Source: Laetmonice hystrix
Taxonomy: Eukaryota
Assembly (NCBI GenBank): GCA_965235115.1
Contig: OZ249436.1
Coordinates: 14,572,001-14,632,000 of the forward strand
DNA: 60,000 nucleotides
Direction: 5' to 3'
Shown: in pieces, positions 3,721 to 57,233 of the stretch
Position numbering within the stretch: the stretch's first letter is position 1
Layout of the letters: every line of letters begins with the position of its first letter
Made by a program: the position numbers and the translations under genes
The notes under the pieces: generated by a model
Told to the model about the DNA's origin: nothing
Databases searched by the model: none
What the model saw: only the letters and a program-made list of their open reading frames with translations

Positions 3721-3747
3721 CATACAGGTCTATAGCTACACACGTAC

Positions 3748-4439: not shown

Positions 4440-4471
4440 GTAAGTCCAGGAGAGCGGCTTGGGGGATGGCC

Positions 4472-6116: not shown

Positions 6117-6121
6117 CTTAC

Positions 6122-7632: not shown

Positions 7633-7648
7633 CCGGAAGATGGCAGTG
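7633..7648 (+). promoter_or_regulatory. CTCF-like / ETS / YY1-like composite motif CCGGAAGATGGCAGTG, one per monomer
   Basis: One mismatch to CCRSYAGRKGGCRS. Contains CCGGAAG (ETS core) and AAGATGGC (YY1 core). CCGGAAGATGGCA appears invariant in the copies inspected. Confidence 0.4.
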
Positions 7649-7995
7649 CAGTCGCCTCCCCCGCCGCCGCTTCAGTAGAGCTGCGCTGCACCCTGGTGTT
7701 TCTTGCCTGCAGCATCTCTGTACTCTTTCTTTGTTTGCTTCTTACTTGGGGATGGGATATCTCATATAGAAAAAGCGTACAACGTCATTTGCCATTGTTA
7801 ACTAAACCTTTACGGCAGCCAGTCATTGGGACGACCTGACAACGTTGTCGCACGCTTAAAGATGGTCTGTAGGGGACACAGATTAGATGGGAGTAGATGA
7901 TAGACGAAACGTATTGCCTGCTTCCTGGACAATAAAGGCATGGAAACATGAAACATGAGGCGTCCCTATATTACTGGCTACTGTTGTATACAAGC

Positions 7996-8157
7996 AAACG
8001 GTACAGGGAAGACAAACAATACAGTGAGGAATCGCTACAAGGTACTGGCTGGCCTAGCACCCCAGCGAACACTACAGTGAGGCCAAAGAGTACAGTAAGG
8101 CTAAACAGTACACTGTGAGGCCAAGCAGTGTGGGAGGCCAACCAGTAGAGTGAGAAG
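7996..8157. repeat. Degenerate 18-bp sub-repeat inside each monomer (consensus AAACAGTACAGTGAGGCC), about 7 copies in two runs
   Basis: Runs at 7996-8031 and 8067-8157. Exact 18-bp unit deletions occur in monomers near 26110, 32115 and 40690. Confidence 0.85.
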
Positions 8158-20100: not shown

Positions 20101-20949
20101 AGGCTAAACAGTACACTGTGAGGCCAAGCAGTGTGGGAGGCCAACCAGTAGAGTGAGAAGTCACTGCATCTTACTGACTGGCCTAGTAGCCATGCAGACA
20201 CTACAGTCAGGTAGTGGAAATGAAAGGTACTGGCGAGGAGCATTTAATGTTAAAATCTGGAGAAGAAACTCAAATGGGAAGTATACACATCACAACCATA
20301 TATCTGTAGCGAACGTACGAGACGTATACGTTTGACAGTTACACATCTGGCCTAAGAATCATAACTTTGGGGGGCGTAGTTTCAATTTGACGTATCAGAA
20401 ATGTAGCCATTTCTCGCTTTTCATTGCTTTAACCTAAGAGCCACCGGTGCCCGCCTGCCCGGCCAAGTATACGTGGTGATTCCACCGGTAGCCGGAAGAT
20501 GGCAGTGCAGTCGCCGCCCCCGCCGCCGCTTCAGTAGAGCTGCGCTGCACCCTGGTGTTTCTTGCCTGCAGTATCTCTGTACTCTTTCTTTGTTTGCTTC
20601 TTACTTGGGGATGGGATATCTGATATAGAAAAGGCGGACAATGTCATTTGCCAATGTTAACTAAACCTATACGGCAAGGAGTCATTGGGACGACCTGACA
20701 ACGTTGTCGCATGCTTACAGATGGTTTGTAGGGGACACAGATTAGATGGGAGTAGATGATAGACGAAAAGTATGGCCTGCCTCCTGGACAATAAAGGCAT
20801 GGAAACATGAAACATGAGGCGTCTCTATATTACTGGCTACTGTTGTATACAAGCAAACGGTACAGGGAGGACAAACAGTACAGTGAGGAATCGCTACAAG
20901 GTACTGGCTGGCCTAGCACCCCAGCGAACACTACAGTGAGGCCAAAGAG

Positions 20950-20957
20950 TAGGCCTA
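20950..20957. mobile_element. Putative transposon excision footprint TA-GGCC-TA (same event copied to 24403, 28682, 37254, 45827, 49282)
   Basis: Related monomers read GAG-TA-CAGTG, while these six read GAG-TA-GGCC-TA-CAGTG. Confidence 0.6.
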
Positions 20958-23900
20958 CAGTGAGGCCAAACAATACACTGTGAGACTGTGAGGCCATGCA
21001 GTGTGGGAGGCCAACCAGTAGAGTGAGAAGTCCCTACATCTTACCGACTGGCCTAGTAGCCATGCAAACACTACAGTGAGGTAGTGGAAATGAAAGGTAC
21101 TGGCGAGGAGCATCTAATGTTAAAATCTGGAGAAGATACTCAAATGGCGCGGAAGTATACACATCACAACCATATATCTGTAGCGAACGTACGAAACCTA
21201 TACGTTTGACAATTACACATCTGGCCTAACAATCATAACTTTGGGGGGCGTAGCTTCAATTTGACGTATCAGAAATGTAGCCATTTTTCGCTTCTCATTG
21301 CTTCAACCTAAGAGCCACAGGTGCCTGCCAGCCCGGCCAGGTATACGTGGTGATTCCACCGGTAGCCGGAAGATGGCAGTGCAGTCGCCTCCCCCGCCGC
21401 CGCTTCAGTAGAGCTGCGCTGCACCCTGGTGTTTCTTGCCTGCAGCATCTCTGTACTCTTTCTTTGTTTGCTTCTTACTTGGGGATGGGATATCTGATAT
21501 AGAAAAGGCGTACAACGTCATTTGCCATTGTTAACTAAACCTATACGGCAAGCAGTCATTGGGACGACCTGACAACGTTGTCGCATGCTTACAGATGGTT
21601 TGTAGGGGACACAGATTAGATGGGAGTAGATGATAGACGAAAAGTATGGCCTGCCTCCTGGACAATAAAGGCATGGAAACATGAAACATGAGATGTCCCT
21701 ATATTACTGGCTACTGTTGTATACAAGCAAACGGTACAGGGAGGACAAACAGTACAGTGAGGAATCGCTACAAGGTACTGGCTGGCCTAGCACCCCAGCG
21801 AACACTACAGTGAGGCCAAAGAGTACAGTGAGGCCAAACAATACACTGTGAGACTGTGAGGCCAAGCAGTGTGGGAGGCCATCCAGTACAGTGAGAAGTC
21901 CCTACATCTTACCGACTGGCCTAGTAGCCATGCAAACACTACAGTCAGGTAGTGGAAATGAAAGGTACTGGCGAGGAGCATTTAATGTAAAAAAACTGGA
22001 GAAGATACTCAAATGGCGCGGAAGTATACACGTCACAACCATATATCTGTAGCGAACGTACGAGACCTATACGTCTGACAGGTATACATCTGGCCTAAGA
22101 ATCATAACTTTGGGGGGCGTAGTTTCAATTTGACGTATCAGAAATGTAGCCATTTCTCGCTTTTCATTGCTTTAACCTAAGAGCCACCGGTGCCCACCAG
22201 CCCGGCCAGGTATACGTGGTGATTCCACCAGTAGCCGGAAGATGGCAATGCAGTCGCCCCCTCTGCCGCCGCTTCAGTAGAGCTGCGCTGCACCCTGGTG
22301 TTTCTTGCCTGCAACATGTCTGTACTCTTTCTTTGTTTGTTTCTTACTAGGGTGGGATATCTGATATAGAAAAAACGTACAGCGTCATTTGCCATTGTTA
22401 ACTAAACCTTTACGGCAGCCAGTCATTGGGACGACCTGACAACGTTGTCGCACGCTTAAAGATGGTCTGTAGGGGACACAGATTAGATGGGAGTAGATGA
22501 TAGACGAAACGTATTGCCTGCTTCCTGGACAATAAAGGCATGGAAACATGAAACATGAGGCGTCCCTATATTAGTGGCTACTGTTGTGTACAAGCAAACG
22601 GTACAGGGAAGACAAACAATACAGTGAGGAATCGCTACAAGGTACTGGCTGGCCTAGCACCCCAGCGAACACTACAGTGAGGCCAAAGAGTACAGTAAGG
22701 CTAAACAGTACACTGTGAGGCCAAGCAGTGTGGGAGGCCAATCAGTAGAGTGAGAAGTCCCTACATCTTACCGACTGGCCTAGTAGCCATGCAAACACTA
22801 CAGTCAGGTCGTGGAAATGAAAGGTACTGGCGAGGAGCATTTAATGTTAAAATCTGGAGAAGATACTTAAATGGGAAGTATACACATCACAACCATATAT
22901 CTGTAGCGAACGTACGAGACCTATACGTTTGACAGTTATACATCTGGCCTAAGAATCATAACTTTGGGGGGCGTAGTTTCAATTTGACGTATCAGAAATG
23001 TAGCCATTTCTCGCTTTTCATTGCTTTAACCTAACAGCCACCGGTGCCCGCCAGCCCGGCCAGGTATACGTCGTGATTCCACCGGTAGCCGGAAGATGGC
23101 AGTGCAGTCGCCTCCCCCGCCGCCGCTTCAGTAGAGCTGCGCTGCACCCTGGTGTTTCTTGCCTGCAGCATCTCTGTACTCTTTCTTTGTTTGCTTCTTA
23201 CTTGGGGATGGGATATCTGATATAGAAAAAGCGTACAACGTCATTTGCCATTGTTAACTAAACCTTTACGGCAGCCAGTCATTGGGACGACCTGACAACG
23301 TTGTCGCACGCTTAAAGATGGTCTGTAGGGGACACAGATTAGATGGGAGTAGATGATAGACGAAACGTATTGCCTGCTTCCTGGACAATAAAGGCATGGA
23401 AACATGAAACATGAGGCGTCCCTATATTACTGGCTACTGTTGTATACAAGCAAACGGTACAGGGAATACAAACAATACAGTGAGGAATCGCTACAAGGTA
23501 CTGGCTGGCCTAGCACCCCAGCGAACACTACAGTGAGGCCAAAGAGTAGAGTAAGGCTAAACAGTAGACTGTGAGGCCAAGCAGTGTGGGAGGCCAACCA
23601 GTAGAGTGAGAAGTCACTGCATCTTACTGACTGGCCTAGTAGCCATGCAGACACTACAGTCAGGTAGTGGAAATGAAAGGTACTGGCGAGGAGCATTTAA
23701 TGTTAAAATCTGGAGAAGAAACTCAAATGGGAAGTATACACATCACAACCATATATCTGTAGCGAACGTACGAGACCTATACGTTTGACAGTTACACATC
23801 TGGCCTAAGAATCATAACTTTGGGGGGCGTAGTTTCAATTTGACGTATCAGAAATGTAGCCATTTCTCGCTTTTCATTGCTTTAACCTAAGAGCCACCGG

Positions 23901-26900
23901 TGCCCGCCTGCCCGGCCAAGTATACGTGGTGATTCCACCGGTAGCCGGAAGATGGCAGTGCAGTCGCCGCCCCCGCCGCCGCTTCAGTAGAGCTGCGCTG
24001 CACCCTGGTGTTTCTTGCCTGCAGTATCTCTGTACTCTTTCTTTGTTTGCTTCTTACTTGGGGATGGGATATCTGATATAGAAAAGGCGGACAATGTCAT
24101 TTGCCAATGTTAACTAAACCTATACGGCAAGGAGTCATTGGGACGACCTGACAACGTTGTCGCATGCTTACAGATGGTTTGTAGGGGACACAGATTAGAT
24201 GGGAGTAGATGATAGACGAAAAGAATGGCCTGCCTCCTGGACAATAAAGGCATGGAAACATGAAACATGAGGCGTCTCTATATTACTGGCTACTGTTGTA
24301 TACAAGCAAACGGTACAGGGAGGACAAACAGTACAGTGAGGAATCGCTACAAGGTACTGGCTGGCCTAGCACCCCAGCGAACACTACAGTGAGGCCAAAG
24401 AGTAGGCCTACAGTGAGGCCAAACAATACACTGTGAGACTGTGAGGCCATGCAGTGTGGGAGGCCAACCAGTAGAGTGAGAAGTCCCTACATCTTACCGA
24501 CTGGCCTAGTAGCCATGCAAACACTACAGTGAGGTAGTGGAAATGAAAGGTACTGGCGAGGAGCATCTAATGTTAAAATCTGGAGAAGATACTCAAATGG
24601 CGCGGAAGTATACACATCACAACCATATATCTGTAGCGAACGTACGAAACCTATACGTTTGACAATTACACATCTGGCCTAACAATCATAACTTTGGCGG
24701 GCGTAGTTTCAATTTGACGTATCAGAAATGTAGCCATTTTTCGCTTTTCATTGCTTTAACCTAAGAGCCACCTGTGCCCGCCAGCCCGGCCAGGTATACG
24801 TCGTGATTCCACCGGTAGCCGGAAGATGGCAGTGCAGTCGCCTCCCTCGCCGCCGCTTCAGTAGAGCTGCGCTGCACCCTGGTGTTTCTTGCCTGCAGCA
24901 TCTCTGTACTCTTCCTTTGTTTGCTTCTTACTTGGGGATGGGATATCTGATATAGAAAAAGCGTACAGCGTCATTTGCCATTGTTAACTAAACCTTTACG
25001 GCAGCCAGTCATTGGGACGACCTGACAACGTTGTCGCATGCTTACAGATGGTTTGTAGGGGACACAGATTAGATGGGAGTAGATGATAGACGAAAAGTAT
25101 GGCCTGCCTCCTGGACAATAAAGGCATGGAAACATGAAACATGAGGCGTCTCTATATTACTGGCTACTGTTGTATACAAGCAAACGGTACAGGGAGGACA
25201 AACAGTACAGTGAGGAATCGCTACAAGGTACTGGCTGGCCTAGCACCCCAGCGAACACTACAGTGAGGCCAAAGGGTACAGTAAGGCTAAACAGTACACT
25301 GTGAGGCCAAGCAGTGTGGGAGGCCAACCAGTAGAGTGAGAAGTCCCTACATCTTACCGACTGGCCTAGTAGCCATGCAAACACTACAGTCAGGTAGTGG
25401 AAATGAAAGGTACTGGCGAGGAGCATTTAATGTTAAAATCTGGAGAAGATACTTAAATGGGAAGTATACACATCACAACCATATATCTGTAGCAAACGTA
25501 CGAGACCTATACGTTTGACAATTATACATCATAACTTTGGGGGGCGTAGTTTCAATTTGACGTATCAGAAATGTAGCCATTTTTCGCTTCTCATTGCTTT
25601 AACCTAAGAGCCACAGGTGCCTGCCAGCCCGGCCAGGTATACGTGGTGATTCCACCGGTAGCCGGAAGATGGCAGTGCAGTCGCCTCCCCCGCCGCCGCT
25701 TCAGTAGAGCTGCGCTGCACCCTGGTGTTTCTTGCCTGCAGCATCTCTGTACTCTTTCTTTGTTTGCTTCTTACTTGGGGATGGGATATCTGATATAGAA
25801 AAGGCGTACAACGTCATTTGCCATTGTTAACTAAACCTATACGGCAAGCAGTCATTGGGACGACCTGACAACGTTGTCGCATGCTTACAGATGGTTTGTA
25901 GGGGACACAGATTAGATGGGAGTAGATGATAGACGAAAAGTATGGCCTGCCTCCTGGACAATAAAGGCATGGAAACATGAAACATGAGATGTCCCTATAT
26001 TACTGGCTACTGTTGTATACAAGCAAACGGTACAGGGAGGACAAACAGTACAGTGAGGAATCGCTACAAGGTACTGGCTGGCCTAGCACCCCAGCGAACA
26101 CTACAGTGAGGCCAAACAATACACTGTGAGACTGTGAGGCCAAGCAGTGTGGGAGGCCAACCAGTAGAGTGAGAAGTCCCTACATCTTACCGACTGGCCT
26201 AGTAGCCATGCAAACACTACAGTCAGGTAGTGGAAATGAAAGGTACTGGCAAGGAGCATTTAATGTAAAAAAAACTGGAGAAGATACTCAAATGGCGCGG
26301 AAGTATACACGTCACAACCATATATCTGTAGCGAACGTACGAGACCTATACGTCTGACAGGTATACATCTGGCCTAAGAATCATAACTTTGGGGGGCGTA
26401 GTTTCAATTTGACGTATCAGAAATGTAGCCATTTCTCGCTTTTCATTGCTTTAACCTAAGAGCCACCGGTGCCCACCAGCCCGGCCAGGTATACGTGGTG
26501 ATTCCACCAGTAGCCGGAAGATGGCAATGCAGTCGCCCCCTCTGCCGCCGCTTCAGTAGAGCTGCGCTGCACCCTGGTGTTTCTTGCCTGCAACATGTCT
26601 GTACTCTTTCTTTGTTTATTTCTTACTAGGGTGGGATATCTGATATAGAAAAAACGTACAGCGTCATTTGCCATTGTTAACTAAACCTTTACGGCAGCCA
26701 GTCATTGGGACGACCTGACAACGTTGTCGCACGCTTAAAGATGGTCTGTAGGGGACACAGATTAGATGGGAGTAGATGATAGACGAAACGTATTGCCTGC
26801 TTCCTGGACAATAAAGGCATGGAAACATGAAACATGAGGCGTCCCTATATTAGTGGCTACTGTTGTATACAAGCAAACGGTACAGGGAAGACAAACAATA

Positions 26901-29900
26901 CAGTGAGGAATCGCTACAAGGTACTGGCTGGCCTAGCACCCCAGCGAACACTACAGTGAGGCCAAAGAGTACAGTAAGGCTAAACAGTACACTGTGAGGC
27001 CAAGCAGTGTGGGAGGCCAATCAGTAGAGTGAGAAGTCCCTACATCTTACCGACTGGCCTAGTAGCCATGCAAACACTACAGTCAGGTCGTGGAAATGAA
27101 AGGTACTGGCGAGGAACATTTAATGTTAAAATCTGGAGAAGATACTTAAATGGGAAGTATACACATCACAACCATATATCTGTAGCGAACGTACGAGACG
27201 TATACGTTTGACAGTTATACATCTGGCCTAAGAATCATAACTTTGGGGGGCGTAGTTTCAATTTGACGTATCAGAAATGTAGCCATTTCTCGCTTTTCAT
27301 TGCTTTAACCTAAGAGCCACCGGTGCCCGCCAGCCCGGCCAGGTATACGTCGTGATTCCACCGGTAGCCGGAAGATGGCAGTGCAGTCGCCTCCCCCGCC
27401 GCCGCTTCAGTAGAGCTGCGCTGCACCCTGGTGTTTCTTGCCTGCAGCATCTCTGTACTCTTTCTTTGTTTGCTTCTTACTTGGGGATGGGATATCTGAT
27501 ATAGAAAAAGCGTACAACGTCATTTGCCATTGTTAACTAAACCTTTACGGCAGCCAGTCATTGGGACGACCTGACAACGTTGTCGCACGCTTAAAGATGG
27601 TCTGTAGGGGACACAGATTAGATGGGAGTAGATGATAGACGAAACGTATGGCCTGCTTCCTGGACAATAAAGGCATGGAAACATGAAACATGAGGCGTCC
27701 CTATATTACTGGCTACTGTTGTATACAAGCAAACGGTACAGGGAAGACAAACAATACAGTGAGGAATCGCTACAAGGTACTGGCTGGCCTAGCACCCCAG
27801 CGAACACTACAGTGAGGCCAAAGAGTAGAGTAAGGCTAAACAGTACACTGTGAGGCCAAGCAGTGTGGGAGGCCAACCAGTAGAGTGAGAAGTCACTGCA
27901 TCTTACTGACTGGCCTAGTAGCCATGCAGACACTACAGTCAGGTAGTGGAAATGAAAGGTACTGGCGAGGAGCATTTAATGTTAAAATCTGGAGAAGAAA
28001 CTCAAATGGGAAGTATACACATCACAACCATATATCTGTAGCGAACGTACGAGACCTATACCTTTGACAGTTACACATCTGGCCTAAGAATCATAACTTT
28101 GGGGGGCGTAGTTTCAATTTGACGTATCAGAAATGTAGCCATTTTTCGCTTTTCATTGCTTTAACCTAAGAGCCACCGGTGCCCGCCAGCCCGGCCAGGT
28201 ATACGTGGTGATTCCACCGGTAGCCGGAAGATGGCAGTGCAGTCGCCTCCCTCGCCGCCGCTTCAGTAGAGCTGCGCTGCACCCTGGTGTTTCTTGCCTG
28301 CAGCATCTCTGTACTCTTCCTTTGTTTGCTTCTTACTTGGGGATGGGATATCTGATATAGAAAAAGCGTACAGCGTCATTTGCCATTGTTAACTAAACCT
28401 TTACGGCAGCCAGTCATTGGGACGACCTGACAACGTTGTCGCATGCTTACAGATGGTTTGTAGGGGACACAGATTAGATGGGAGTAGATGATAGACGAAA
28501 AGTATGGCCTGCCTCCTGGACAATAAAGGCATGGAAACATGAAACATGAGGCGTCTCTATATTACTGGCTACTGTTGTATACAAGCAAACGGTACAGGGA
28601 GGACAAACAGTACAGTGAGGAATCGCTACAAGGTACTGGCTGGCCTAGCACCCCAGCGAACACTACAGTGAGGCCAAAGAGTAGGCCTACAGTGAGGCCA
28701 AACAATACACTGTGAGACTGTGAGGCCATGCAGTGTGGGAGGCCAACCAGTAGAGTGAGAAGTCCCTACATCTTACCGACTGGCCTAGTAGCCATGCAAA
28801 CACTACAGTGAGGTAGTGGAAATGAAAGGTACTGGCGAGGAGCATCTAATGTTAAAATCTGGAGAAGATACTCAAATGGCGCGGAAGTATACACATCACA
28901 ACCATATATCTGTAGCGAACGTACGAAACCTATACGTTTGACAATTACACATCTGGCCTAACAATCATAACTTTGGGGGGCGTAGTTTCAATTTGACGTA
29001 TCAAAAATGTAGCCATTTTTCGCTTCTCATTGCTTTAACCTAAGAGCCACAGGTGCCTGCCAGCCCGGCCAGGTATACGTGGTGATTCCACCGGTAGCCG
29101 GAAGATGGCAGTGCAGTCGCCTCCCCCGCCGCCGCTTCAGTAGAGCTGCGCTGCACCCTGGTGTTTCTTGCCTGCAGCATCTCTGTACTCTTTCTTTGTT
29201 TGCTTCTTACTTGGGGATGGGATATCTGATATAGAAAAGGCGTACAACGTCATTTGCCATTGTTAACTAAACCTATACGGCAAGCAGTCATTGGGACGAC
29301 CTGACAACGTTGTCGCATGCTTACAGATGGTTTGTAGGGGACACAGATTAGATGGGAGTAGATGATAGACGAAAAGTATGGCCTGCCTCCTGGACAATAA
29401 AGGCATGGAAACATGAAACATGAGATGTCCCTATATTACTGGCTACTGTTGTATACAAGCAAACGGTACAGGGAGGACAAACAGTACAGTGAGGAATCGC
29501 TACAAGGTACTGGCTGGCCTAGCACCCCAGCGAACACTACAGTGAGGCCAAAGAGTACAGTGAGGCCAAACAATACACTGTGAGACTGTGAGGCCAAGCA
29601 GTGTGGGAGGCCAACCAGTAGAGTGAGAAGTCCCTACATCTTACCGACTGGCCTAGTAGCCATGCAAACACTACAGTCAGGTAGTGGAAATGAAAGGTAC
29701 TGGCGAGGAGCATTTAATGTAAAAAAACTGGAGAAGATACTCAAATGGCGCGGAAGTATACACGTCACAACCATATATCTGTAGCGAACGTACGAGACCT
29801 ATACGTCTGACAGGTATACATCTGGCCTAAGAATCATAACTTTGGGGGGCGTAGTTTCAATTTGACGTATCAGAAATGTAGCCATTTCTCGCTTTTCATT

Positions 29901-32900
29901 GCTTTAACCTAAGAGCCACCGGTGCCCGCCAGCCCGGCCAGGTATACGTCGTGATTCCACCGGTAGCCGGAAGATGGCAGTGCAGTCGCCTCCCCCGCCG
30001 CCGCTTCAGTAGAGCTGCGCTGCACCCTGGTGTTTCTTGCCTGCAGCATCTCTGTACTCTTTCTTTGTTTGCTTCTTACTTGGGGATGGGATATCTGATA
30101 TAGAAAAAGCGTACAACGTCATTTGCCATTGTTAACTAAACCTTTACGGCAGCCAGTCATTGGGACGACCTGACAACGTTGTCGCACGCTTAAAGATGGT
30201 CTGTAGGGGACACAGATTAGATGGGAGTAGATGATAGACGAAACGTATTGCCTGCTTCCTGGACAATAAAGGCATGGAAACATGAAACATGAGGCGTCCC
30301 TATATTACTGGCTACTGTTGTATACAAGCAAACGGTACAGGGAAGACAAACAATACAGTGAGGAATCGCTACAAGGTACTGGCTGGCCTAGCACCCCAGC
30401 GAACACTACAGTGAGGCCAAAGAGTAGAGTAAGGCTAAACAGTACACTGTGAGGCCAAGCAGTGTGGGAGGCCAACCAGTAGAGTGAGAAGTCACTGCAT
30501 CTTACTGACTGGCCTAGTAGCCATGAAGACACTACAGTCAGGTAGTGGAAATGAAAGGTACTGGCGAGGAGCATTTAATGTTAAAATCTGGAGAAGAAAC
30601 TCAAATGGGAAGTATACACATCACAACCATATATCTGTAGCGAACGTACGAGACCTATACGTTTGACAGTTACACATCTGGCCTAAGAATCATAACTTTG
30701 GGGGGCGTAGTTTCAATTTGACGTATCAGAAATGTAGCCATTTTTCGCTTTTCATTGCTTTAACCTAAGAGCCACCTGTGCCCGCCAGCCCGGCCAGGTA
30801 TACGTCGTGATTCCACCGGTAGCCGGAAGATGGCAGTGCAGTCGCCTCCCTCGCCGCCGCTTCAGTAGAGCTGCGCTGCACCCTGGTGTTTCTTGCCTGC
30901 AGCATCTCTGTACTCTTCCTTTGTTTGCTTCTTACTTGGGGATGGGATATCTGATATAGAAAAAGCGTACAGCGTCATTTGCCATTGTTAACTAAACCTT
31001 TACGGCAGCCAGTCATTGGGACGACCTGACAACGTTGTCGCATGCTTACAGATGATTTGTAGGGGACACAGATTAGATGGGAGTAGATGATAGACGAAAA
31101 GTATGGCCTGCCTCCTGGACAATAAAGGCATGGAAACATGAAACATGAGGCGTCTCTATATTACTGGCTACTGTTGTATACAAGCAAACGGTACAGGGAG
31201 GACAAACAGTACAGTGAGGAATCGCTACAAGGTACTGGCTGGCCTAGCACCCCAGCGAACACTACAGTGAGGCCAAAGAGTACAGTAAGGCTAAACAGTA
31301 CACTGTGAGGCCAAGCAGTGTGGGAGGCCAACCAGTAGAGTGAGAAGTCCCTACATCTTACCGACTGGCCTAGTAGCCATGCAAACACTACAGTCAGGTA
31401 GTGGAAATGAAAGGTACTGGCGAGGAGCATTTAATGTTAAAATCTGGAGAAGATACTTAAATGGGAAGTATACACATCACAACCATATATCTGTAGCAAA
31501 CGTACGAGACCTATACGGTTGACAATTATACATCATAACTTTGGGGGGCGTAGTTTCAATTTGACGTATCAGAAATGTAGCCATTTTTCGCTTCTCATTG
31601 CTTTAACCTAAGAGCCACAGGTGCCTGCCAGCCCGGCCAGGTATACGTGGTGATTCCACCGGTAGCCGGAAGATGGCAGTGCAGTCGCCTCCCCCGCCGC
31701 CGCTTCAGTAGAGCTGCGCTGCACCCTGGTGTTTCTTGCCTGCAGCATCTCTGTACTCTTTCTTTGTTTGCTTCTTACTTGGGGATGGGATATCTGATAT
31801 AGAAAAGGCGTACAACGTCATTTGCCATTGTTAACTAAACCTATACGGCAAGCAGTCATTGGGACGACCTGACAACGTTGTCGCATGCTTACAGATGGTT
31901 TGTAGGGGACACAGATTAGATGGGAGTAGATGATAGACGAAAAGTATGGCCTGCCTGCTGGACAATAAAGGCATGGAAACATGAAACATGAGATGTCCCT
32001 ATATTACTGGCTACTGTTGTATACAAGCAAACGGTACAGGGAGGACAAACAGTACAGTGAGGAATCGCTACAAGGTACTGGCTGGCCTAGCACCCCAGCG
32101 AACACTACAGTGAGGCCAAACAATACACTGTGAGACTGTGAGGCCAAGCAGTGTGGGAGGCCAACCAGTAGAGTGAGAAGTCCCTACATCTTACCGACTG
32201 GCCTAGTAGCCATGCAAACACTACAGTCAGGTAGTGGAAATGAAAGGTACTGGCAAGGAGCATTTAATGTAAAAAAAACTGGAGAAGATACTCAAATGGC
32301 GCGGAAGTATACACGTCACAACCATATATCTGTAGCGAACGTACGAGACCTATACGTCTGACAGGTATACATCTGGCCTAAGAATCATAACTTTGGGGGG
32401 CGTAGTTTCAATTTGACGTATCAGAAATGTAGCCATTTCTCGCTTTTCATTGCTTTAGCCTAAGAGCCACCGGTGCCCACCAGCCCGGCCAGGTATACGT
32501 GGTGATTCCACCAGTAGCCGGAAGATGGCAATACAGTCGCCCCCTCTGCCGCCGCTTCAGTAGAGCTGCGCTGCACCCTGGTGTTTCTTGCCTGCAACAT
32601 GTCTGTACTCTTTCTTTGTTTGTTTCTTACTAGGGTGGGATATCTGATATAGAAAAAACGTACAGCGTCATTTGCCATTGTTAACTAAACCTTTACGGCA
32701 GCCAGTCATTGGGACGACCTGACAACGTTGTCGCACGCTTAAAGATGGTCTGTAGGGGACACAGATTAGATGGGAGTAGATGATAGACGAAACGTATTGC
32801 CTGCTTCCTGGACAATAAAGGCATGGAAACATGAAACATGAGGCGTCCCTATATTAGTGGCTACTGTTGTATACAAGCAAACGGTACAGGGAAGACAAAC

Positions 32901-44900: not shown

Positions 44901-47900
44901 ACAGTGAGGAATCGCTACAAGGTACTGGCTGGCCTAGCACCCCAGCGAACACTACAGTGAGGCCAAAGAGTAGAGTAAGGCTAAACAGTACACGGTGAGG
45001 CCAAGCAGTGTGGGAGGCCAACCAGTAGAGTGAGAAGTCACTGCATCTTACTGACTGGCCTAGTAGCCATGCAGACACTACAGTCAGGTAGTGGAAATGA
45101 AAGGTACTGGCGAGGAGCATTTAATGTTAAAATCTGGAGAAGAAACTCAAATGGGAAGTATACACATCACAACCATATATCTGTAGCGAACGTACGAGAC
45201 CTATACGTTTGACAGTTACACATCTGGCCTAAGAATCATAACTTTGGGGGGCGTAGTTTCAATTTGACGTATCAGAAATGTAGCCATTTTTCGCTTTTCA
45301 TTGCTTTAACCTAAGAGCCACCGGTGCCCGCCAGCCCGGCCAGGTATACGTGGTGATTCCACCGGTAGCCGGAAGATGGCAGTGCAGTCGCCTCCCTCGC
45401 CGCCGCTTCAGTAGAGCTGCGCTGCAACCTGGTGTTTCTTGCCTGCAGCATCTCTGTACTCTTCCTTTGTTTGCTTCTTACTTGGGGATGGGATATCTGA
45501 TATAGAAAAAGCGTACAGCGTCATTTGCCATTGTTAACTAAACCTTTACGGCAGCCAGTCATTGGGACGACCTGACAACGTTGTCGCATGCTTACAGATG
45601 GTTTGTAGGGGACACAGATTAGATGGGAGTAGATGATAGACGAAAAGTATGGCCTGCCTCCTGGACAATAAAGGCATGGAAACATGAAACATGAGGCGTC
45701 TCTATATTACTGGCTACTGTTGTATACAAGCAAACGGTACAGGGAGGACAAACAGTACAGTGAGGAATCGCTACAAGGTACTGGCTGGCCTAGCACCCCA
45801 GCGAACACTACAGTGAGGCCAAAGAGTAGGCCTACAGTGAGGCCAAACAATACACTGTGAGACTGTGAGGCCATGCAGTGTGGGAGGCCAACCAGTAGAG
45901 TGAGAAGTCCCTACATCTTACCGACTGGCCTAGTAGCCATGCAAACACTACAGTGAGGTAGTGGAAATGAAAGGTACTGGCGAGGAGCATCTAATGTTAA
46001 AATCTGGAGAAGATACTCAAATGGCGCGGAAGTATACACATCACAACCATATATCTGTAGCGAACGTACGAAACCTATACGTTTGACAATTACACATCTG
46101 GCCTAATAATCATAACTTTGGGGGGCGTAGTTTCAATTTGACGTATCAAAAATGTAGCCATTTTTCGCTTCTCATTGCTTTAACCTAAGAGCCACAGGTG
46201 CCTGCCAGCCCGGCCAGGTATACGTGGTGATTCCACCGGTAGCCGGAAGATGGCAGTGCAGTCGCCTCCCCCGCCGCCGCTTCAGTAGAGCTGCGCTGCA
46301 CGCTGGTGTTTCTTGCCTGCAGCATCTCTGTACTCTTTCTTTGTTTGCTTCTTACTTGGGGATGGGATATCTGATATAGAAAAGGCGTACAACGTCATTT
46401 GCCATTGTTAACTAAACCTATACGGCAAGCAGTCATTGGGACGACCTGACAACGTTGTCGCATGCTTACAGATGGTTTGTAGGGGACACAGATTAGATGG
46501 GAGTAGATGATAGACGAAAAGTATGGCCTGCCTCCTGGACAATAAAGGCATGGAAACATGAAACATGAGATGTCCCTATATTACTGGCTACTGTTGTATA
46601 CAAGCAAACGGTACAGGGAGGACAAACAGTACAGTGAGGAATCGCTACAAGGTACTGGCTGGCCTAGCACCCCAGCGAACACTACAGTGAGGCCAAAGAG
46701 TACAGTGAGGCCAAACAATACACTGTGAGACTGTGAGGCCAAGCAGTGTGGGAGGCCAACCAGTAGAGTGAGAAGTCCCTACATCTTACCGACTGGCCTA
46801 GTAGCCATGCAAACACTACAGTCAGGTAGTGGAAATGAAAGGTACTGGCGAGGAGCATTTAATGTAAAAAAACTGGAGAAGATACTCAAATGGCGCGGAA
46901 GTATACACGTCACAACCATATATCTGTAGCGAACGTACGAGACCTATACGTCTGACAGGTATACATCTGGCCTAAGAATCATAACTTTGGGGGGCGTAGT
47001 TTCAATTTGACGTATCAGAAATGTAGCCATTTCTCGCTTTTCATTGCTTTAACCTAAGAGCCACCGGTGCCCGCCAGCCCGGCCAGGTATACGTGGTGAT
47101 TCCACCGGTAGCCGGAAGATGGCAGTGCAGTCGCCTCCCTCGCCGCCGCTTCAGTAGAGCTGCGCTGCAACCTGGTGTTTCTTGCCTGCAGCATCTCTGT
47201 ACTCTTCCTTTGTTTGCTTCTTACTTGGGGATGGGATATCTGATATAGAAAAAGCGTACAGCGTCATTTGCCATTGTTAACTAAACCTTTACGGCAGCCA
47301 GTCATTGGGACGACCTGACAACGTTGTCGCACGCTTAAAGATGGTCTGTAGGGGACACAGATTAGATGGGAGTAGATGATAGACGAAACGTATTGCCTGC
47401 TTCCTGGACAATAAAGGCATGGAAACATGAAACATGAGGCGTCCCTATATTAGTGGCTACTGTTGTATACAAGCAAACGGTACAGGGAAGACAAACAATA
47501 CAGTGAGGAATCGCTACAAGGTACTGGCTGGCCTAGCACCCCAGCGAACACTACAGTGAGGCCAAAGAGTACAGTAAGGCTAAACAGTACACTGTGAGGC
47601 CAAGCAGTGTGGGAGGCCAATCAGTAGAGTGAGAAGTCCCTACATCTTACCGACTGGCCTAGTAGCCATGCAAACACTACAGTCAGGTCGTGGAAATGAA
47701 AGGTACTGGCGAGGAGCATTTAATGTTAAAATCTGGAGAAGATACTTAAATGGGAAGTATACACATCACAACCATATATCTGTAGCGAACGTACGAGACC
47801 TATACGTTTGACAGTTATACATCTGGCCTAAGAATCATAACTTTGGGGGGCGTAGTTTCAATTTGACGTATCAGAAATGTAGCCATTTCTCGCTTTTCAT

Positions 47901-50900
47901 TGCTTTAACCTAAGAGCCACCGGTGCCCGCCAGCCCGGCCAGGTATACGTCGTGATTCCACCGGTAGCCGGAAGATGGCAGTGCAGTCGCCTCCCCCGCC
48001 GCCGCTTCAGTAGAGCTGCGCTGCACCCTGGTGTTTCTTGCCTGCAGCATCTCTGTACTCTTTCTTTGTTTGCTTCTTACTTGGGGATGGGATATCTGAT
48101 ATAGAAAAAGCGTACAACGTCATTTGCCATTGTTAACTAAACCTTTACGGCAGCCAGTCATTGGGACGACCTGACAACGTTGTCGCACGCTTAAAGATGG
48201 TCTGTAGGGGACACAGATTAGATGGGAGTAGATGATAGACGAAACGTATGGCCTGCTTCCTGGACAATAAAGGCATGGAAACATGAAACATGAGGCGTCC
48301 CTATATTACTGGCTACTGTTGTATACAAGCAAACGGTACAGGGAAGACAAACAATACAGTGAGGAATCGCTACAAGGTACTGGCTGGCCTAGCACCCCAG
48401 CGAACACTACAGTGAGGCCAAAGAGTAGAGTAAGGCTAAACAGTACACGGTGAGGCCAAGCAGTGTGGGAGGCCAACCAGTAGAGTGAGAAGTCACTGCA
48501 TCTTACTGACTGGCCTAGTAGCCATGCAGACACTACAGTCAGGTAGTGGAAATGAAAGGTACTGGCGAGGAGCATTTAATGTTAAAATCTGGAGAAGAAA
48601 CTCAAATGGGAAGTATACACATCACAACCATATATCTGTAGCGAACGTACGAGACCTATACGTTTGACAGTTACACATCTGGCCTAAGAATCATAACTTT
48701 GGGGGGCGTAGTTTCAATTTGACGTATCAGAAATGTAGCCATTTTTCGCTTTTCATTGCTTTAACCTAAGAGCCACCGGTGCCGGCCAGCCCGGCCAGGT
48801 ATACGTGGTGATTCCACCGGTAGCCGGAAGATGGCAGTGCAGTCGCCTCCCTCGCCGCCGCTTCAGTAGAGCTGCGCTGCAACCTGGTGTTTCTTGCCTG
48901 CAGCATCTCTGTACTCTTCCTTTGTTTGCTTCTTACTTGGGGATGGGATATCTGATATAGAAAAAGCGTACAGCGTCATTTGCCATTGTTAACTAAACCT
49001 TTACGGCAGCCAGTCATTGGGACGACCTGACAACGTTGTCGCATGCTTACAGATGGTTTGTAGGGGACACAGATTAGATGGGAGTAGATGATAGACGAAA
49101 AGTATGGCCTGCCTCCTGGACAATAAAGGCATGGAAACATGAAACATGAGGCGTCTCTATATTACTGGCTACTGTTGTATACAAGCAAACGGTACAGGGA
49201 GGACAAACAGTACAGTGAGGAATCGCTACAAGGTACTGGCTGGCCTAGCACCCCAGCGAACACTACAGTGAGGCCAAAGAGTAGGCCTACAGTGAGGCCA
49301 AACAATACACTGTGAGACTGTGAGGCCATGCAGTGTGGGAGGCCAACCAGTAGAGTGAGAAGTCCCTACATCTTACCGACTGGCCTAGTAGCCATGCAAA
49401 CACTACAGTGAGGTAGTGGAAATGAAAGGTACTGGCGAGGAGCATCTAATGTTAAAATCTGGAGAAGATACTCAAATGGCGCGGAAGTATACACATCACA
49501 ACCATATATCTGTAGCGAACGTACGAAACCTATACGTTTGACAATTACACATCTGGCCTAATAATCATAACTTTGGGGGGCGTAGTTTCAATTTGACGTA
49601 TCAAAAATGTAGCCATTTTTCGCTTCTCATTGCTTTAACCTAAGAGCCACAGGTGCCTGCCAGCCCGGCCAGGTATACGTGGTGATTCCACCGGTAGCCG
49701 GAAGATGGCAGTGCAGTCGCCTCCCCCGCCGCCGCTTCAGTAGAGCTGCGCTGCACGCTGGTGTTTCTTGCCTGCAGCATCTCTGTACTCTTTCTTTGTT
49801 TGCTTCTTACTTGGGGATGGGATATCTGATATAGAAAAGGCGTACAACGTCATTTGCCATTGTTAACTAAACCTATACGGCAAGCAGTCATTGGGACGAC
49901 CTGACAACGTTGTCGCATGCTTACAGATGGTTTGTAGGGGACACAGATTAGATGGGAGTAGATGATAGACGAAAAGTATGGCCTGCCTCCTGGACAATAA
50001 AGGCATGGAAACATGAAACATGAGATGTCCCTATATTACTGGCTACTGTTGTATACAAGCAAACGGTACAGGGAGGACAAACAGTACAGTGAGGAATCGC
50101 TACAAGGTACTGGCTGGCCTAGCACCCCAGCGAACACTACAGTGAGGCCAAAGAGTACAGTGAGGCCAAACAATACACTGTGAGACTGTGAGGCCAAGCA
50201 GTGTGGGAGGCCAACCAGTAGAGTGAGAAGTCCCTACATCTTACCGACTGGCCTAGTAGCCATGCAAACACTACAGTCAGGTAGTGGAAATGAAAGGTAC
50301 TGGCGAGGAGCATTTAATGTAAAAAAACTGGAGAAGATACTCAAATGGCGCGGAAGTATACACGTCACAACCATATATCTGTAGCGAACGTACGAGACCT
50401 ATACGTCTGACAGGTATACATCTGGCCTAAGAATCATAACTTTGGGGGGCGTAGTTTCAATTTGACGTATCAGAAATGTAGCCATTTCTCGCTTTTCATT
50501 GCTTTAACCTAAGAGCCACCGGTGCCCGCCAGCCCGGCCAGGTATACGTCGTGATTCCATCGGTAGCCGGAAGATGGCAGTGCAGTCGCCTCCCCCGCCG
50601 CCGCTTCAGTAGAGCTGCGCTGCACCCTGGTGTTTCTTGCCTGCAGCATCTCTGTACTCTTTCTTTGTTTGCTTCTTACTTGGGGATGGGATATCTGATA
50701 TAGAAAAAGCGTACAACGTCATTTGCCATTGTTAACTAAACCTTTACGGCAGCCAGTCATTGGGACGACCTGACAACGTTGTCGCACGCTTAAAGATGGT
50801 CTGTAGGGGACACAGATTAGATGGGAGTAGATGATAGACGAAACGTATTGCCTGCTTCCTGGACAATAAAGGCATGGAAACATGAAACATGAGGCGTCCC

Positions 50901-53900
50901 TATATTACTGGCTACTGTTGTATACAAGCAAACGGTACAGGGAAGACAAACAATACAGTGAGGAATCGCTACAAGGTACTGGCTGGCCTAGCACCCCAGC
51001 GAACACTACAGTGAGGCCAAAGAGTAGAGTAAGGCTAAACAGTACACTGTGAGGCCAAGCAGTGTGGGAGGCCAACCAGTAGAGTGAGAAGTCACTGCAT
51101 CTTACTGACTGGCCTAGTAGCCATGCAGACACTACAGTCAGGTAGTGGAAATGAAAGGTACTGGCGAGGAGCATTTAATGTTAAAATCTGGAGAAGAAAC
51201 TCAAATGGGAAGTATACACATCACAACCATATATCTGTAGCGAACGTACGAGACCTATACGTTTGACAGTTACACATCTGGCCTAAGAATCATAACTTTG
51301 GGGGGCGTAGTTTCAATTTGACGTATCAGAAATGTAGCCATTTTTCGCTTTTCATTGCTTTAACCTAAGAGCCACCGGTGCCCGCCAGCCCGGCCAGGTA
51401 TACGTGGTGATTCCACCGGTAGCCGGAAGATGGCAGTGCAGTCGCCTCCCTCGCCGCCGCGTCAGTAGAGCTGCGCTGCACCCTGGTGTTTCTTGCCTGC
51501 AGCATCTCTGTACTCTTCCTTTGTTTGCTTCTTACTTGGGGATGGGATATCTGATATAGAAAAAGCGTACAGCGTCATTTGCCATTGTTAACTAAACCTT
51601 TACGGCAGCCAGTCATTGGGACGACCTGACAACGTTGTCGCATGCTTACAGATGGTTTGTAGGGGACACAGATTAGATGGGAGTAGATGATAGACGAAAA
51701 GTATGGCCTGCCTCCTGGACAATAAAGGCATGGAAACATGAAACGTGAGGCGTCTCTATATTACTGGCTACTGTTGTATACAAGCAAACGGTACAGGGAG
51801 GACAAACAGTACAGTGAGGAATCGCTACAAGGTACTGGCTGGCCTAGCACCCCAGCGAACACTACAGTGAGGCCAAAGAGTACAGTAAGGCTAAACAGTA
51901 CACTGTGAGGCCAAGCAGTGTGGGAGGCCAACCAGTAGAGTGAGAAGTCCCTACATCTTACCGACTGGCCTAGTAGCCATGCAAACACTACAGTCAGGTA
52001 GTGGAAATGAAAGGTACTGGCAAGGAGCATTTAATGTTAAAATCTGGAGAAGATACTTAAATGGGAAGTATACACATCACAACCATATATCTGTAGCGAA
52101 CGTACGAGACCTATACGTTTGACAATTATACATCATAACTTTGGGGGGCGTAGTTTCAATTTGACGTATCAGAAATGTAGCCATTTTTCGCTTCTCATTG
52201 CTTTAACCTAAGAGCCACAGGTGCCTGCCAGCCCGGCCAGGTATACGTGGTGATTCCACCGGTAGCCGGAAGATGGCAGTGCAGTCGCTTCCCCCTCCGC
52301 CGCTTCAGTAGAGCTGCGCTGCACCCTGGTGTTTCTTGCCTGCAGCATCTCTGTACTCTTTCTTTGTTTGCTTCTTACTTGGGGATGGGATATCTGATAT
52401 AGAAAAGGCGTACAACGTCATTTGCCATTGTTAACTAAACCTATACGGCAAGCAGTCATTGGGACGACCTGACAACGTTGTCGCATGCTTACAGATGGTT
52501 TGTAGGGGACACAGATTAGATGGGAGTAGATGATAGACGAAAAGTATGGCCTGCCTCCTGGACAATAAAGGCATGGAAACATGAAACATGAGATGTCCCT
52601 ATATTACTGGCTACTGTTGTATACAAGCAAACGGTACAGGGAGGACAAACAGTACAGTGAGGAATCGCTACAAGGTACTGGCTGGCCTAGCACCCCAGCG
52701 AACGCTACAGTGAGGCCAAAGAGTGCAGTGAGGCCAAACAATACACTGTGAGACTGTGAGGCCAAGCAGTGTGGGAGGCCAACCAGTAGAGTGAGAAGTC
52801 CCTACATCTTACCGACTGGCCTAGTAGCCATGCAAACACTACAGTCAGGTAGTGGAAATGAAAGGTACTGGCGAGGAGCATTTAATGTTAAAATCTGGAG
52901 AAGATACTTAAATGGGAAGTATACACATCACAACCATATATCTGTAGCGAACGTACGAGACCTATACGTTTGACAATTATACATCATAACTTTGGGGGGC
53001 GTAGTTTCAATTTGACGTATCAGAAATGTAGCCATTTTTCGCTTCTCATTGCTTTAACCTAAGAGCCACAGGTGCCTGCCAGCCCGGCCAGGTATACGTG
53101 GTGATTCCACCGGTAGCCGGAAGATGGCAGTGCAGTCGCCTCCCCCGCCGCCGCTTCAGTAGAGCTGCGCTGCACCCTGGTGTTTCTTGCCTGCAGCATC
53201 TCTGTACTCTTTCTTTGTTTGCTTCTTACTTGGGGATGGGATATCTGATATAGAAAAGGCGTACAACGTCATTTGCCATTGTTAACTAAACCTATATGGC
53301 AAGCAGTCATTGGGACGACCTGACAACGTTGTCGCATGCTTACAGATGGTTTGTAGGGGACACAGATTAGATGGGAGTAGATGATAGACGAAAAGTATGG
53401 CCTGCCTCCTGGACAATAAAGGCATGGAAACATGAAACATGAGATGTCCCTATATTACTGGCTACTGTTGTTTACAAGCAAACGGTACAGGGAGGACAAA
53501 CAGTACAGTGAGGAATCGCTACAAGGTACTGGCTGGCCTAGCACCCCAGCGAACACTACAGTGAGGCCAAAGAGTACAGTGAGGCCAAACAATACACTGT
53601 GAGACTGTGAGGCCAAGCAGTGTGGGAGGCCAACCAGTAGAGTGAGAAGTCCCTACATCTTACCGACTGGCCTAGTAGCCATGCAAACACTACAGTCAGG
53701 TAGTGGAAATGAAAGGTACTGGCGAGGAGCATTTAATGTAAAAAAACTGGAGAAGATACTCAAATGGCGCGGAAGTATACACGTCACAACCATATATCTG
53801 TAGCGAACGTACGAGACCTATACGTCTGACAGGTATACATCTGGCCTAAGAATCATAACTTTGGGGGGCGTAGTTTCAATTTGACGTATCAGAAATGTAG

Positions 53901-56900
53901 CCATTTCTCGCTTTTCATTGCTTTAACCTAAGAGCCACAGGTGCCTGCCAGCCCGGCCAGGTATACGTGGTGATTCCACCGGTAGCCGGAAGATGGCAGT
54001 GCAGTCGCCTCCCCCGCCGCCGCTTCAGTAGAGCTGCGCTGCACCCTGGTGTTTCTTGCCTGCAACATCTCTGTACTCTTTCTTTGTTTGTTTCTTACTT
54101 GGGGATGGGATATCTGATATAGAAAAAGCGTACAACGTCATTTGCTATTTTTAACTAAACCTTTACGGCAAACAGTCATTGGGACGACCTGACAACGTTG
54201 TCGCACGCTTACAGATGGTTTGTAGGGGACACAGATTAGATGGGAGTAGATGATAGCCGAAAAGTATGGCCTGCCTCCTGGACAATAAAGGCATGGAAAC
54301 ATGAAACATGAGGCGTCCCTATATTACTGGCTACTGTTGTATACAAGCAGACGGTACAGGGAGGACAAACAGTACAGTGAGGAATCGCTACAAGGTACTG
54401 GCTGGCCTAGCACCCCAGCGAACACTACAGTGCGGCCAAAGAGTACAGTGAGGCCAAACAATACACTGTGAGACTGTGAGGCCAAGCAGTGTCGGAGGCC
54501 AACCAGTAGAGTGAGAAGTCCCTACATCTTACCGACTGGCCTAGTAGCCATGCAAACACTACGGTGAGGTAGTGGAAATGAAAGGTACTGGCGAGGAGCA
54601 TCTAATGTTAAAATCTGGAGAAGATACTCAAATGGCGCGGAAGTATACACATCACAACCATATATCTGTAGCGAACGTACGAAACCTATACGTTTGACAG
54701 TTACACATCTGGCCTAACAATCATAATTTGGGGGGCGTAGTTTCAATTTGACGTATCAGAAATGTAGCCATTTTTCGCTTCTCATTGCTTTAACCTAAGA
54801 GCCACAGGTGCCTGCCAGCCCGGCCAGGTATACGTGGTGATTCCACCGGTAGCCGGAAGATGGCAGTGCAGTCGCCTCCCCCGCCGCCGCTTCAGTAGAG
54901 CTGCGCTGCACCCTGGTGTTTCTTGCCTGCAGCATCTCTGTACTCTTTCTTTGTTTGCTTCTTACTTGGGGATGGGATATCTGATATAGAAAAGGCGTAC
55001 AACGTCATTTGCCATTGTTAACTAAACCTATACGGCAAGCAGTCATTGGGACGACCTGACAACGTTGTCGCATGCTTACAGATGGTTTGTAGGGGACACA
55101 GATTAGATGGGAGTAGATGATAGACGAAAAGTATGGCCTGCCTCCTGGACAATAAAGGCATGGAAACATGAAACATGAGATGTCCCTATATTACTGGCTA
55201 CTGTTGTATACAAGCAAACGGTACAGGGAGGACAAACAGTACAGTGAGGAATCGCTACAAGGTACTGGCTGGCCTAGCACCCCAGCGAACACTACAGTGA
55301 GGCCAAAGAGTACAGTGAGGCCAAACAATACACTGTGAGACTGTGAGGCCAAGCAGTGTGGGAGGCCAACCAGTAGAGTGAGAAGTCCCTACATCCTACC
55401 GACTGGCCTAGTAGCCATGCAAACACTACAGTCAGGTAGTAGAAATGAAAGGTACTGGCGAGGAGCATTTAATGTTAAAATCTGGAGAAGATACTTAAAT
55501 GGGAAGTATACACATCACAACCATATATCTGTAGCGAACGTACGAGACCTATACGTTTGACAGTTATACATCTGGCCTAAGAATCATAACTTTGGGGGGC
55601 GTAGTTTCAATTTGACGTATCAGAAATGTAGCCATTTCTCGCTTTTCATTGCTTTAACCTAAGAGCCACCGGTGCCCGGCAGCCCGGCCAGGTATACGTG
55701 GTGATTCCACCGGTAGCCGGAAGATGGCAGTGCAGTCGCCTCCCTCGCCGCCGCTTCAGTAGAGCTGCGCTGCACCCTGGTGTTTCTTGCCTGCAGCATC
55801 TCTGTACTCTTTCTTTGTTGGCTTCTTACTTGGGGATGGGATATCTGATATAGAAAAAGCGTACAACGTCATTTGCCATTGTTAACTAAACCTTTACGGC
55901 AGCCAGTCATTGGGATGACCTGACAACGTTGTCGCACGCTTAAAGATGGTCTGTAGGGGCCACAGATTAGATGGGAGTAGATGATAGACGAAACGTATGG
56001 CCTGCTTCCTGGACAATAAAGGCATTGAAACATGAAACATGAGATGTCCCTATATTACTGGCTACTGTTGTATACAAGCAAACGGTACAGGGAGGACAAA
56101 CAGTACAGTGAGGAATCGCTACAAGGTACTGGCTGGCCTAGCACCCCAGCGAACACTACAGTGAGGCCAAAGAGTACAGTGAGGCCAAACAATACACTGT
56201 GAGACTGTGATGCCAAGCAGTGTGGGAGGCCAACCAGTAGAGTGAGAAGTCCCTACATCTTACTGACTGGCCTAGTAGCCATGCAAACACTACAGTCAGG
56301 TAGTGGAAATTAAAGGTACTGGCGAGGAGCATTGGAGAAGAAACTCAAATGGAAAGTATAGACATCACAACCATATATCTGTAGCGAACGTACGAAACCT
56401 AAACGTTTGACAGTTACACATCTGGCCTAACAATCATAACTTTGGGGGGCGTAGTTTCAATTTGACGTATCAGAAATGTAGCCATTTTTCGCTTCTCATT
56501 GCTTTAACCTAAGAGCCACAGGTGCCTGCCAGCCCGGCCAGGTATACGTGGTGATTCCACCGGTAGCCGGAAGATGGCAGTGCAGTCGCCTCCCCCGCCG
56601 CCGCTTCAGTAGAGCTGCGCTGCACCCTGGTGTTTCTTGCCTGCAGCATCTCTGTACTCTTTCTTTGTTTGCTTCTTACTTGGGGATGGGATATCTGATA
56701 TAGAAAAGGCGTACAACGTCATTTGCCATTGTTAACTAAACCTATACGACAAGCAGTCATTGGGACGACCTGACAACGTTGTCGCATGCTTACAGATGGT
56801 ATGTAGGGGACACAGATTAGATGGGAGTAGATGATAGACGAAAAGTATGGCCTGCCTCCTGGACAATAAAGGCATGGAAACATGAAACATGAGATGTCCC

Positions 56901-57225
56901 TATATTACTGGCTACTGTTGTATACAAGCAAACGGTACAGGGAGGACAAACAGTACAGTGAGGAATCGCTACAAGGTACTGGCTGGCCTAGCACCCCAGC
57001 GAACACTACAGTGAGGCCAAAGAGTACAGTGAGGCCAAACAATACACTGTGAGACTGTGAGGCCAAGCAGTGTGGGAGGCCAACCAGTAGAGTGAGAAGT
57101 CCCTACATCTTACCGACTGGCCTAGTAGCCATGCAAACCCTACAGTCAGGTAGTGGAAATGAAAGGTACTGGCGAGGAGCATTTAATGTAAAAAAACTGG
57201 AGAAGATACTCAAATGGCGCGGAAG

Positions 57226-57233
57226 TAGGCCTA
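57226..57233. mobile_element. Second independent TA-GGCC-TA footprint
   Basis: Related monomers read GGAAG-TA-TACAC, while this one reads GGAAG-TA-GGCC-TA-TACAC. Confidence 0.6.

Follow-up and report, generated by a model that had tools for sequence, protein, structure and literature searches.

On excision, Tc1/mariner transposases make their cuts a few letters within the element, which leaves 3′ overhangs; the resulting footprint consists of 2-4 letters from the start or end of the element, set between a pair of TAs, such as TACAGTA/TACTGTA for Sleeping Beauty (available text of PMC6943129). The Tc1 footprint of C. elegans, taCATGta, is called rare (cited in the available text of PMC3520976). 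In the biology of DNA transposons, excision is the half that goes unseen: the element departs and the scar alone stays. Here, we analyze a 60,000-nt stretch of Laetmonice hystrix contig OZ249436.1 (the window; its letters are those of the forward strand, and all positions are window-relative). It is non-coding DNA of animal type, and its tandem satellite has gained the word TAGGCCTA at two sites that were formerly plain TA. The insertions are real, independent, of fixed sequence and located at TA. By analogy drawn from the scars, they would work like Tc1/mariner excision footprints, and we put the probability that they are the footprints of a TA-duplicating cut-and-paste DNA transposon at roughly 0.65.

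The likeness to Tc1/mariner consists in a short fixed core between TA pairs at a former plain TA, with a net gain of the core plus one TA. The core here is GGCC rather than CA or CAG ends, and it is known from scars alone. Whereas the Tc1 word has been described as rare, the word found here is natural heritable variation, occurring about once per kb in the left flank of the satellite. Minos, of the Tc1 family, leaves a 6-bp footprint of four terminal letters plus TA, of which our literature search found no description. Its core is a different one; an element starting with GGCC would give TA-GGCC-TA from either end.

Other families resemble the insertions less closely. ISL2EU elements (PHIS group), found in animals, have terminal inverted repeats (TIRs) that usually begin with GG, and typically duplicate AT within the target A-AT-T; the available text of PMC4482050 and PMC4122938 describes no natural footprints of this group. 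Their GG-start TIRs would fit the ends proposed below, and the duplication is also of 2 bp; the empty sites of the window are G-TA-C and G-TA-T, not A-AT-T. A TA duplication occurs in some IS4EU families of Repbase. The ends of Sailor are GT or CC and its duplication is TATA (available text of PMC8533490), and Zator makes 3-bp duplications (available text of PMC10045372). At both sites in the satellite only TA is duplicated, which matches neither the TWA of PIF/Harbinger nor the TATA of Sailor, nor the insertion without duplication of Spy. Two parts of the Tc1/mariner pattern are found here: a net insertion at TA with the TA duplicated (at both satellite sites and at 4 of 15 testable sites in the metagenome loci described below), and a fixed core of 2-4 letters, the same GGCC standing in differing flanks.

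Insertions captured in the satellite array

The satellite occupies 6110..58556 on the + strand (the start being approximate and set by eye) and comprises 60 full monomers of about 856 bp (843-875), with partial ends. Divided at 61 anchors, the array yielded the 60 full monomers for alignment, which have a mean pairwise difference of 3.2% and carry 164 distinct substitution variants and 13 indel variants; sister copies provide the empty-site comparisons for the inserted sites. Monomer lengths recur as runs (e.g. 874, 869 or 843, 852, 854) over 6648-58170, and these point to higher-order block duplication with mosaic monomers.

The initial annotation had placed TAGGCCTA at 12 positions, and all of them hold exactly, including the five in the left flank, namely: 2371, 2908, 3280, 3686, 5597, 20950, 24403, 28682, 37254, 45827, 49282 and 57226. 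Measured against the majority state of the 60 monomers, two of the four insertion types of at least 4 bp are separate 6-bp gains, each turning TA into TAGGCCTA; the remaining two are an 8-bp repeat of adjoining letters and a 4-bp GCGC. At site A (empty form GAG-TA-CAG), 6 of the 60 monomers carry the insertion (20950..20957, 24403..24410, 28682..28689, 37254..37261, 45827..45834 and 49282..49289), 51 have none, and in 3 an 18-bp deletion has removed the site. At site B (empty form AAG-TA-TAC), the insertion is found in a single monomer (57226..57233), while the other 59 are empty. The alignment to sister monomers therefore confirms that two independent sites each gained GGCCTA after a TA, one in six copies and the other unique, and that the empty site is supplied by sister monomers, both of which had been proposed in the initial annotation. 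The GCGC insertion, present in 19 of the 60 monomers (e.g. at 9139), lies 9 alignment columns before site B and does not duplicate its flanks in tandem.

The inserted state is derived, since the empty state is the majority at both sites, the partial monomer at the left edge is empty at both, and the empty form of site A preserves an internal 18-bp sub-repeat. A single origin of the six site-A copies is likely because they, and no other monomers (6/60), have in common a private substitution about 40 bp downstream, at column 634. In a tree of whole monomers these copies do not form one clade (the bootstrap had not settled), which appears to reflect the mosaic nature of the monomers. The site-B monomer is separated from its nearest sisters by only 4 substitutions; thus, the event at site B is young.

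A third insertion was probably captured in the left flank, where copy 4 of a 92-bp tandem repeat has TA-AGCC-TA (2769..2776), one mismatch from the word, and copies 1-3 have TA. This candidate is weaker evidence because of the mismatch, because copy 4 carries several other substitutions, and because TAGGCC lies 8 bp upstream.

Such neighbouring sequences raise the alternative of local templated copying, by which a strand that has broken or slipped and ends in TA would copy GGCC from a nearby inverted GGCCTA and then return. Each monomer holds three GGCCTA and is rich in GAGGCC sub-repeats, and potential templates lie at 40 bp from site A, at 73 and 107 bp from site B and at 8 bp from the candidate at 2769. 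However, only the two-letter TA is available for priming, and none of the 19 TA-NNNN templates within 50 bp of site B would supply GGCC. Random templates within 110 bp would give GGCC twice with a probability of 0.0034, and any same 4-mer twice with a probability of 0.016; in addition, the excess of the word in the non-array flank and in other organisms is left unexplained. Copying from nearby GGCCTA or AGGCC motifs, the fallback named in the initial annotation, fits poorly with these figures, and we regard it as very unlikely.

The word in the flanks and in other genomes

In the non-tandem flanks (5.7 kb), Markov models of orders 0-3 predict 0.08-0.31 copies of TAGGCCTA, and 5 are present (p 2e-8 to 2e-5, for a word that was chosen after being seen). 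All five copies are in the left flank and none is in the 1.4-kb right flank. The word at 2371 lies within the chain TA-GG-TA-GGCC-TA-CC-TA (2367..2382), for which no empty site is available. Those at 2908..2915 and 3280..3287 are present in sequencing sample S1 too, while for the word at 3686..3693 the S1 contigs extend to its final letter. The word at 5597..5604 is situated in a dispersed repeat; it may have arrived as part of that repeat, and be older than this copy, because a paralogous contig carries it beside a TACATGTA word. Two variant words, TA-GGCCCC-TA (4426..4435) and TA-GGGCC-TA (5539..5547), belong to classes that are enriched in the metagenome loci.

Words with one mismatch to TAGGCCTA are also in excess in the flanks (9 vs. 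2.35 expected, p 7e-4), and a similar ratio is seen for only one other of 16 TA-NNNN-TA palindromes (ACGT, 5 vs. 1.7). Among other palindromes of footprint form, TACATGTA occurs 3 times, two of them chained, against 0.17 expected; TAGATCTA (2), TATGCATA (2) and TACTAGTA (1) likewise stand above expectation. These words are found at 4714-4727, 59240, 1868, 3150, 2392, 2928 and 5682, and are possibly the scars of other families.

The array allows a rough rate to be derived. Two events over 63 TA sites, compared with 164 substitutions over 856 sites, correspond to 0.17 events per TA per substitution per base (95% range 0.02-0.6), or about one scar per 80 substitutions. At steady state this rate predicts 8.8 perfect words in the flanks (1.1-32), where 5 are observed. 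A steady process also predicts one-mismatch and perfect words in the proportion 8:7, while a fresh burst predicts nearly no one-mismatch words; the excesses in the flanks stand at about 7 to 5. The scar process looks long-running and also recently active. The initial annotation had described the responsible element as recently very active. The young event at site B agrees with recent activity, while the one-mismatch excess, together with the four flank words present in a sample about 1% diverged, indicates slow accumulation over a long time.

That sample, S1, consists of contigs from three runs of one sample in one study; it may come from the source animal or a relative and is not independent. 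One S1 contig covers 2712-3693 without a gap and differs at 7 letters, and the words at 2769, 2908, 3280 and 3686 are common to the window and S1. Over 2694-5889, S1 yielded no 6-bp indel among 12 of its 62 indel entries, and neither a full-element allele nor an empty allele was seen at the words.

We also scanned metagenomes for two TAGGCCTA copies within 30 bp of each other, which gave at least 121 loci (348 kb), all locus figures being taken from the matches listed. Ten were dropped, three as bacterial or phage-like by Pfam and seven, on visual inspection, as arrays (tandem or palindromic) or as atypical, and 111 loci (304 kb) were kept. The matches used for selection were masked before counting, and 121 viral loci chosen with the identical pattern served as a control for selection only. 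The 111 loci contain 128 copies of TAGGCCTA where 2.8 would be expected (about 46-fold), 120 of TAGGCTA/TAGCCTA (26 expected) and 24 of TAGGGCCTA/TAGGCCCTA (1.2 expected). The corresponding ratios are 37, 3.7 and 14 if all 121 loci are used, and 2.4, 0.7 and 0.6 in the viral control. Sister repeats are empty at 4 of 15 testable TAGGCCTA words and 4 of 7 TAGGCTA/TAGCCTA words, compared with 0 of 8 for TAGGTA/TACCTA and 1 of 22 for control words.

Five of the loci encode animal-type domains (RING/B-box, fibrinogen, ligand-gated channel, RasGEF and ubiquitin hydrolase), and the domain scan marked three as bacterial or phage-like and one as carrying a reverse transcriptase. Most of the other loci are taken to be of animal type because many share repeats with the domain-bearing ones. 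None has homology to the window; thus, these loci show the breadth of the phenomenon and not identity of cause. Two loci (L030:6293 and L048:3140) hold copies of one repeat family with TAGGCCTA at nearly the same TA-rich spot, most sisters being empty, which represents either two hot-spot events or one shared event. Two open reading frames (ORFs) in animal-type contigs have no Pfam match, namely L053:2-3079 (-), of 1026 aa, and L071:13569-14975 (-), of 469 aa.

The spread of empty sister sites also bears on two further readings, selection for the word as a protein-binding site and an error of assembly, in both of which the array events would be a coincidence. TACATGTA in Phytophthora has been read as a transcription-factor site, a footprint origin being rejected by the authors (available text of PMC3520976), and site B is a single copy seen in the assembly. 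Selection, however, does not produce an identical 6-bp insertion twice in a satellite. Moreover, site A is present in six linked copies, four flank words recur in separate sequencing contigs, and empty sister sites exist in other organisms. We consider both versions highly improbable. If the words are footprints, palindromic 8-mers can be the commonest in such genomes without serving as regulatory motifs.

Proposed excision geometry and the candidate source of the scars

Under the transposon reading, the element would insert at TA, with a mild preference for purine-TA-pyrimidine, and would duplicate the TA; purines flank TA on 12 of 14 sides, compared with a background of 0.55 (p 0.017, post hoc). 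As in Tc1/mariner, the host ends left by excision would carry 2-4 terminal letters of the element as 3′ overhangs, and end joining would give TA-GGCC-TA. A scar inside a monomer would then be copied along with the array, as is observed in the six copies of site A, and the process would be long-running at about the rate estimated above.

TA-GGCC-TA is obtainable from three end types: 2-nt GG, with both overhangs retained as in the Tc1 word; 3-nt GGC, with the overhangs paired through their last two letters; and 4-nt GGCC, which would act like the cohesive 4-nt overhangs of Minos. All three are compatible with the window data alone. The likeliest ends would be GGC...GCC, in which two GGC-3′ overhangs would pair via their last two letters and be filled in to GGCC, with alternative pairing registers yielding GGC/GCC and GGGCC/GGCCC; GG or GGCC ends would yield the identical main product. 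The metagenome spectrum favours GGC ends, for those loci, which may mix species and so limit conclusions on geometry. GGC/GCC cores exceed expectation by 94 in the 111 loci and single-transition neighbour pairs by 5.6-26.6. GGC/GCC is probably a primary product because its excess is far above that of any such pair. GGGCC/GGCCC fits a one-letter overlap of the overhangs. The full GGCGCC core is absent from the 111 loci, which counts against GGC ends. Chains such as TA-GG-TA-GGCC-TA-CC-TA were considered as proof of a 2-nt GG overhang; this was weakened by one-sided TAGGTA/TACCTA, which are not enriched in the 111 loci (86 vs. 97) and not significantly so in the window flanks (6 vs. 2.9).

Several observations weigh against a transposon as the origin of the insertions. 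No TA-GG inverted-repeat element in the window ends or in 119 loci survived inspection, and a search for repeat ends in the 111 loci (304 kb) revealed no TA-GG family, even though TAGGCCTA is about 5 times commoner there than TACATGTA. The repeat-end search does work, because it detected a TA-CAC family, with five ends in three loci. These belong to a Tc1/mariner-like miniature inverted-repeat transposable element (MITE), TA-flanked and with CAC-type ends (L034:12351-12549, L071:1231-2157 and L077:1344). No DNA transposase was found in 69 of 83 metagenome-locus ORFs of at least 150 aa, with the window's frames and overlapping alternates left out, and we found no published family that combines TA duplication with GG ends in the available texts. 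TA-GGGGCC-TA (GGGGCC/GGCCCC) is enriched in the metagenome loci (9 vs. 0.3), and GGC ends do not predict it. TAGGCTA/TAGCCTA are absent from the window flanks (0 vs. 0.6 background), and the GGC geometry consequently rests on other organisms. No site was seen to be polymorphic between the window and S1 over 2694-5889, among 12 of the 62 indel entries and with only about 0.4 estimated to be expected in 3.2 kb at this divergence, and the rate estimate depends on 2 events only, which makes its numbers rough. The main weakness is that, common as the scars are, no source for them is visible in the 304 kb. Either a host process or an element that is present in few copies, excises often or has since been lost would account for this.

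The TA-targeting transposon with GG and CC ends proposed in the initial annotation is thus upheld in part: the insertions are independent, fixed in sequence, TA-duplicating, poorly explained by templates and enriched elsewhere, while the element and its transposase were not found, and GG is one of three possible geometries. The search that it had suggested, for a TA-GG...CC-TA TIR family and its transposase, produced no such family in the window or the 111 scar-rich loci, and no transposase among the 69 ORFs scanned.

An invisible source is also what would be expected if no mobile element were involved, with a nuclease making a staggered break at TA, G letters being added to both ends by a polymerase or from a fixed short template, and the ends joined. 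Versions of this process include a domesticated transposase as the nuclease, and telomerase adding GG from TTAGGG. In keeping with it, no source element was seen in the same loci in which the TA-CAC family was detectable, the word equals TAGG joined to its own reverse complement, and enrichment is seen for each of the G-run variants G2C1, G3C2 and G4C2. Independent G addition, on the other hand, predicts GGGC/GCCC cores (TAGGGCTA/TAGCCCTA), which are not enriched in the 111 loci, possibly of mixed species (5 vs. 5.6), and GGGCCC (G3C3) is absent (0). As for telomerase, the telomere-extended word occurs 0 times in 304 kb and the one-sided words are at 86 vs. 97, again in possibly mixed loci of other organisms. 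Furthermore, the TA-NNNN-TA word differs by genome (TACATGTA in urchin, TACCGGTA in diatom), which would suit element ends better. On balance, such a host process seems unlikely. We find it distinctly less plausible that a standing host insertion process operates at steady state in several animal lineages, the matching element being gone or never having existed. The same low plausibility applies to its more specific form, in which a host-kept transposase or nuclease with a short fixed donor writes GGCC plus TA at about one event per 80 substitutions.

If the insertions are footprints of a transposon, they form a countable and datable record of past excisions and a class of small insertions of one sequence, amounting to about 1% of substitutions. 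In that case there should also be a TA-targeting element with GG(C) ends that has escaped recognition. Tandem arrays are built-in before-and-after records from which such rates can be measured. The window contributes insertions that can be compared with empty sister monomers of the same array, a rate estimate and an argument from decay. We found no published description of TAGGCCTA or GGCCTA as a footprint, in a search that excluded most subscription journals, Repbase Reports and supplements. PMC13320814 has nothing on footprints in its available text, and the available main texts of PMC7386202, PMC10379824 and PMC9179366 name no TA-flanked GG-ended family; the supplementary tables of TIRs and target-site duplications of PMC4482050, PMC7386202 and PMC10379824 may hold one.

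Rejected candidates and other features of the window

Several candidate elements were rejected. L017:1008-3175 resembled a TA-GGCC...GGCC-TA element, and its arms proved to belong to two copies of a dispersed repeat in inverted orientation, each arm being the end of one copy, with homology to L079 extending beyond the TA into the flank; we take this repeat to be HINE/Helentron-like. Candidates in L049 and L059 are, by eye, inverted dispersed-repeat pairs of the same kind, and those in L082 and L109 are tandem arrays. L003:822-2785 showed a 16-letter match, made up largely of two TAGGCCTA words, and failed a stricter test.

The window itself contains two MITEs, neither of which combines TA duplication with GG ends. 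The first (3980-4112) has 44-nt arms and GGGCC ends and reaches about a thousand-fold single-copy depth in S1, where related copies begin with GGCCC. It is placed between AAA and TTT without duplication, like Spy elements (available text of PMC4122938), and was rejected as the scar source given this context and its lack of TA duplication. The second (59468-59680, about 213 bp) has 52-nt arms, inner hairpins and the ends GCC...GGC, and its flanks, A-AT and AT-T, match the target of ISL2EU (available text of PMC4482050).

No Rfam family was matched at gathering score in 1-9300, and the array was accordingly rejected as an RNA-gene cluster. A hairpin of about 80 bp (4304-4384) has sub-threshold matches to several microRNA models (best E 7e-7, below gathering score) and is probably a small inverted repeat. 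At the left end of the window, a 33-bp GC-rich minisatellite with 84- and 117-bp higher-order units extends over 299-1526; three or four of its frames are open for more than 400 codons, probably as a by-product. Between this minisatellite and the array lies about 4 kb of mixed flank that includes the 92-bp tandem repeat (2420-2801) and a degenerate 34-bp tandem repeat (5890-6108). Several dispersed repeats (5262-5889), followed by the 34-bp repeat, adjoin the left edge of the satellite.

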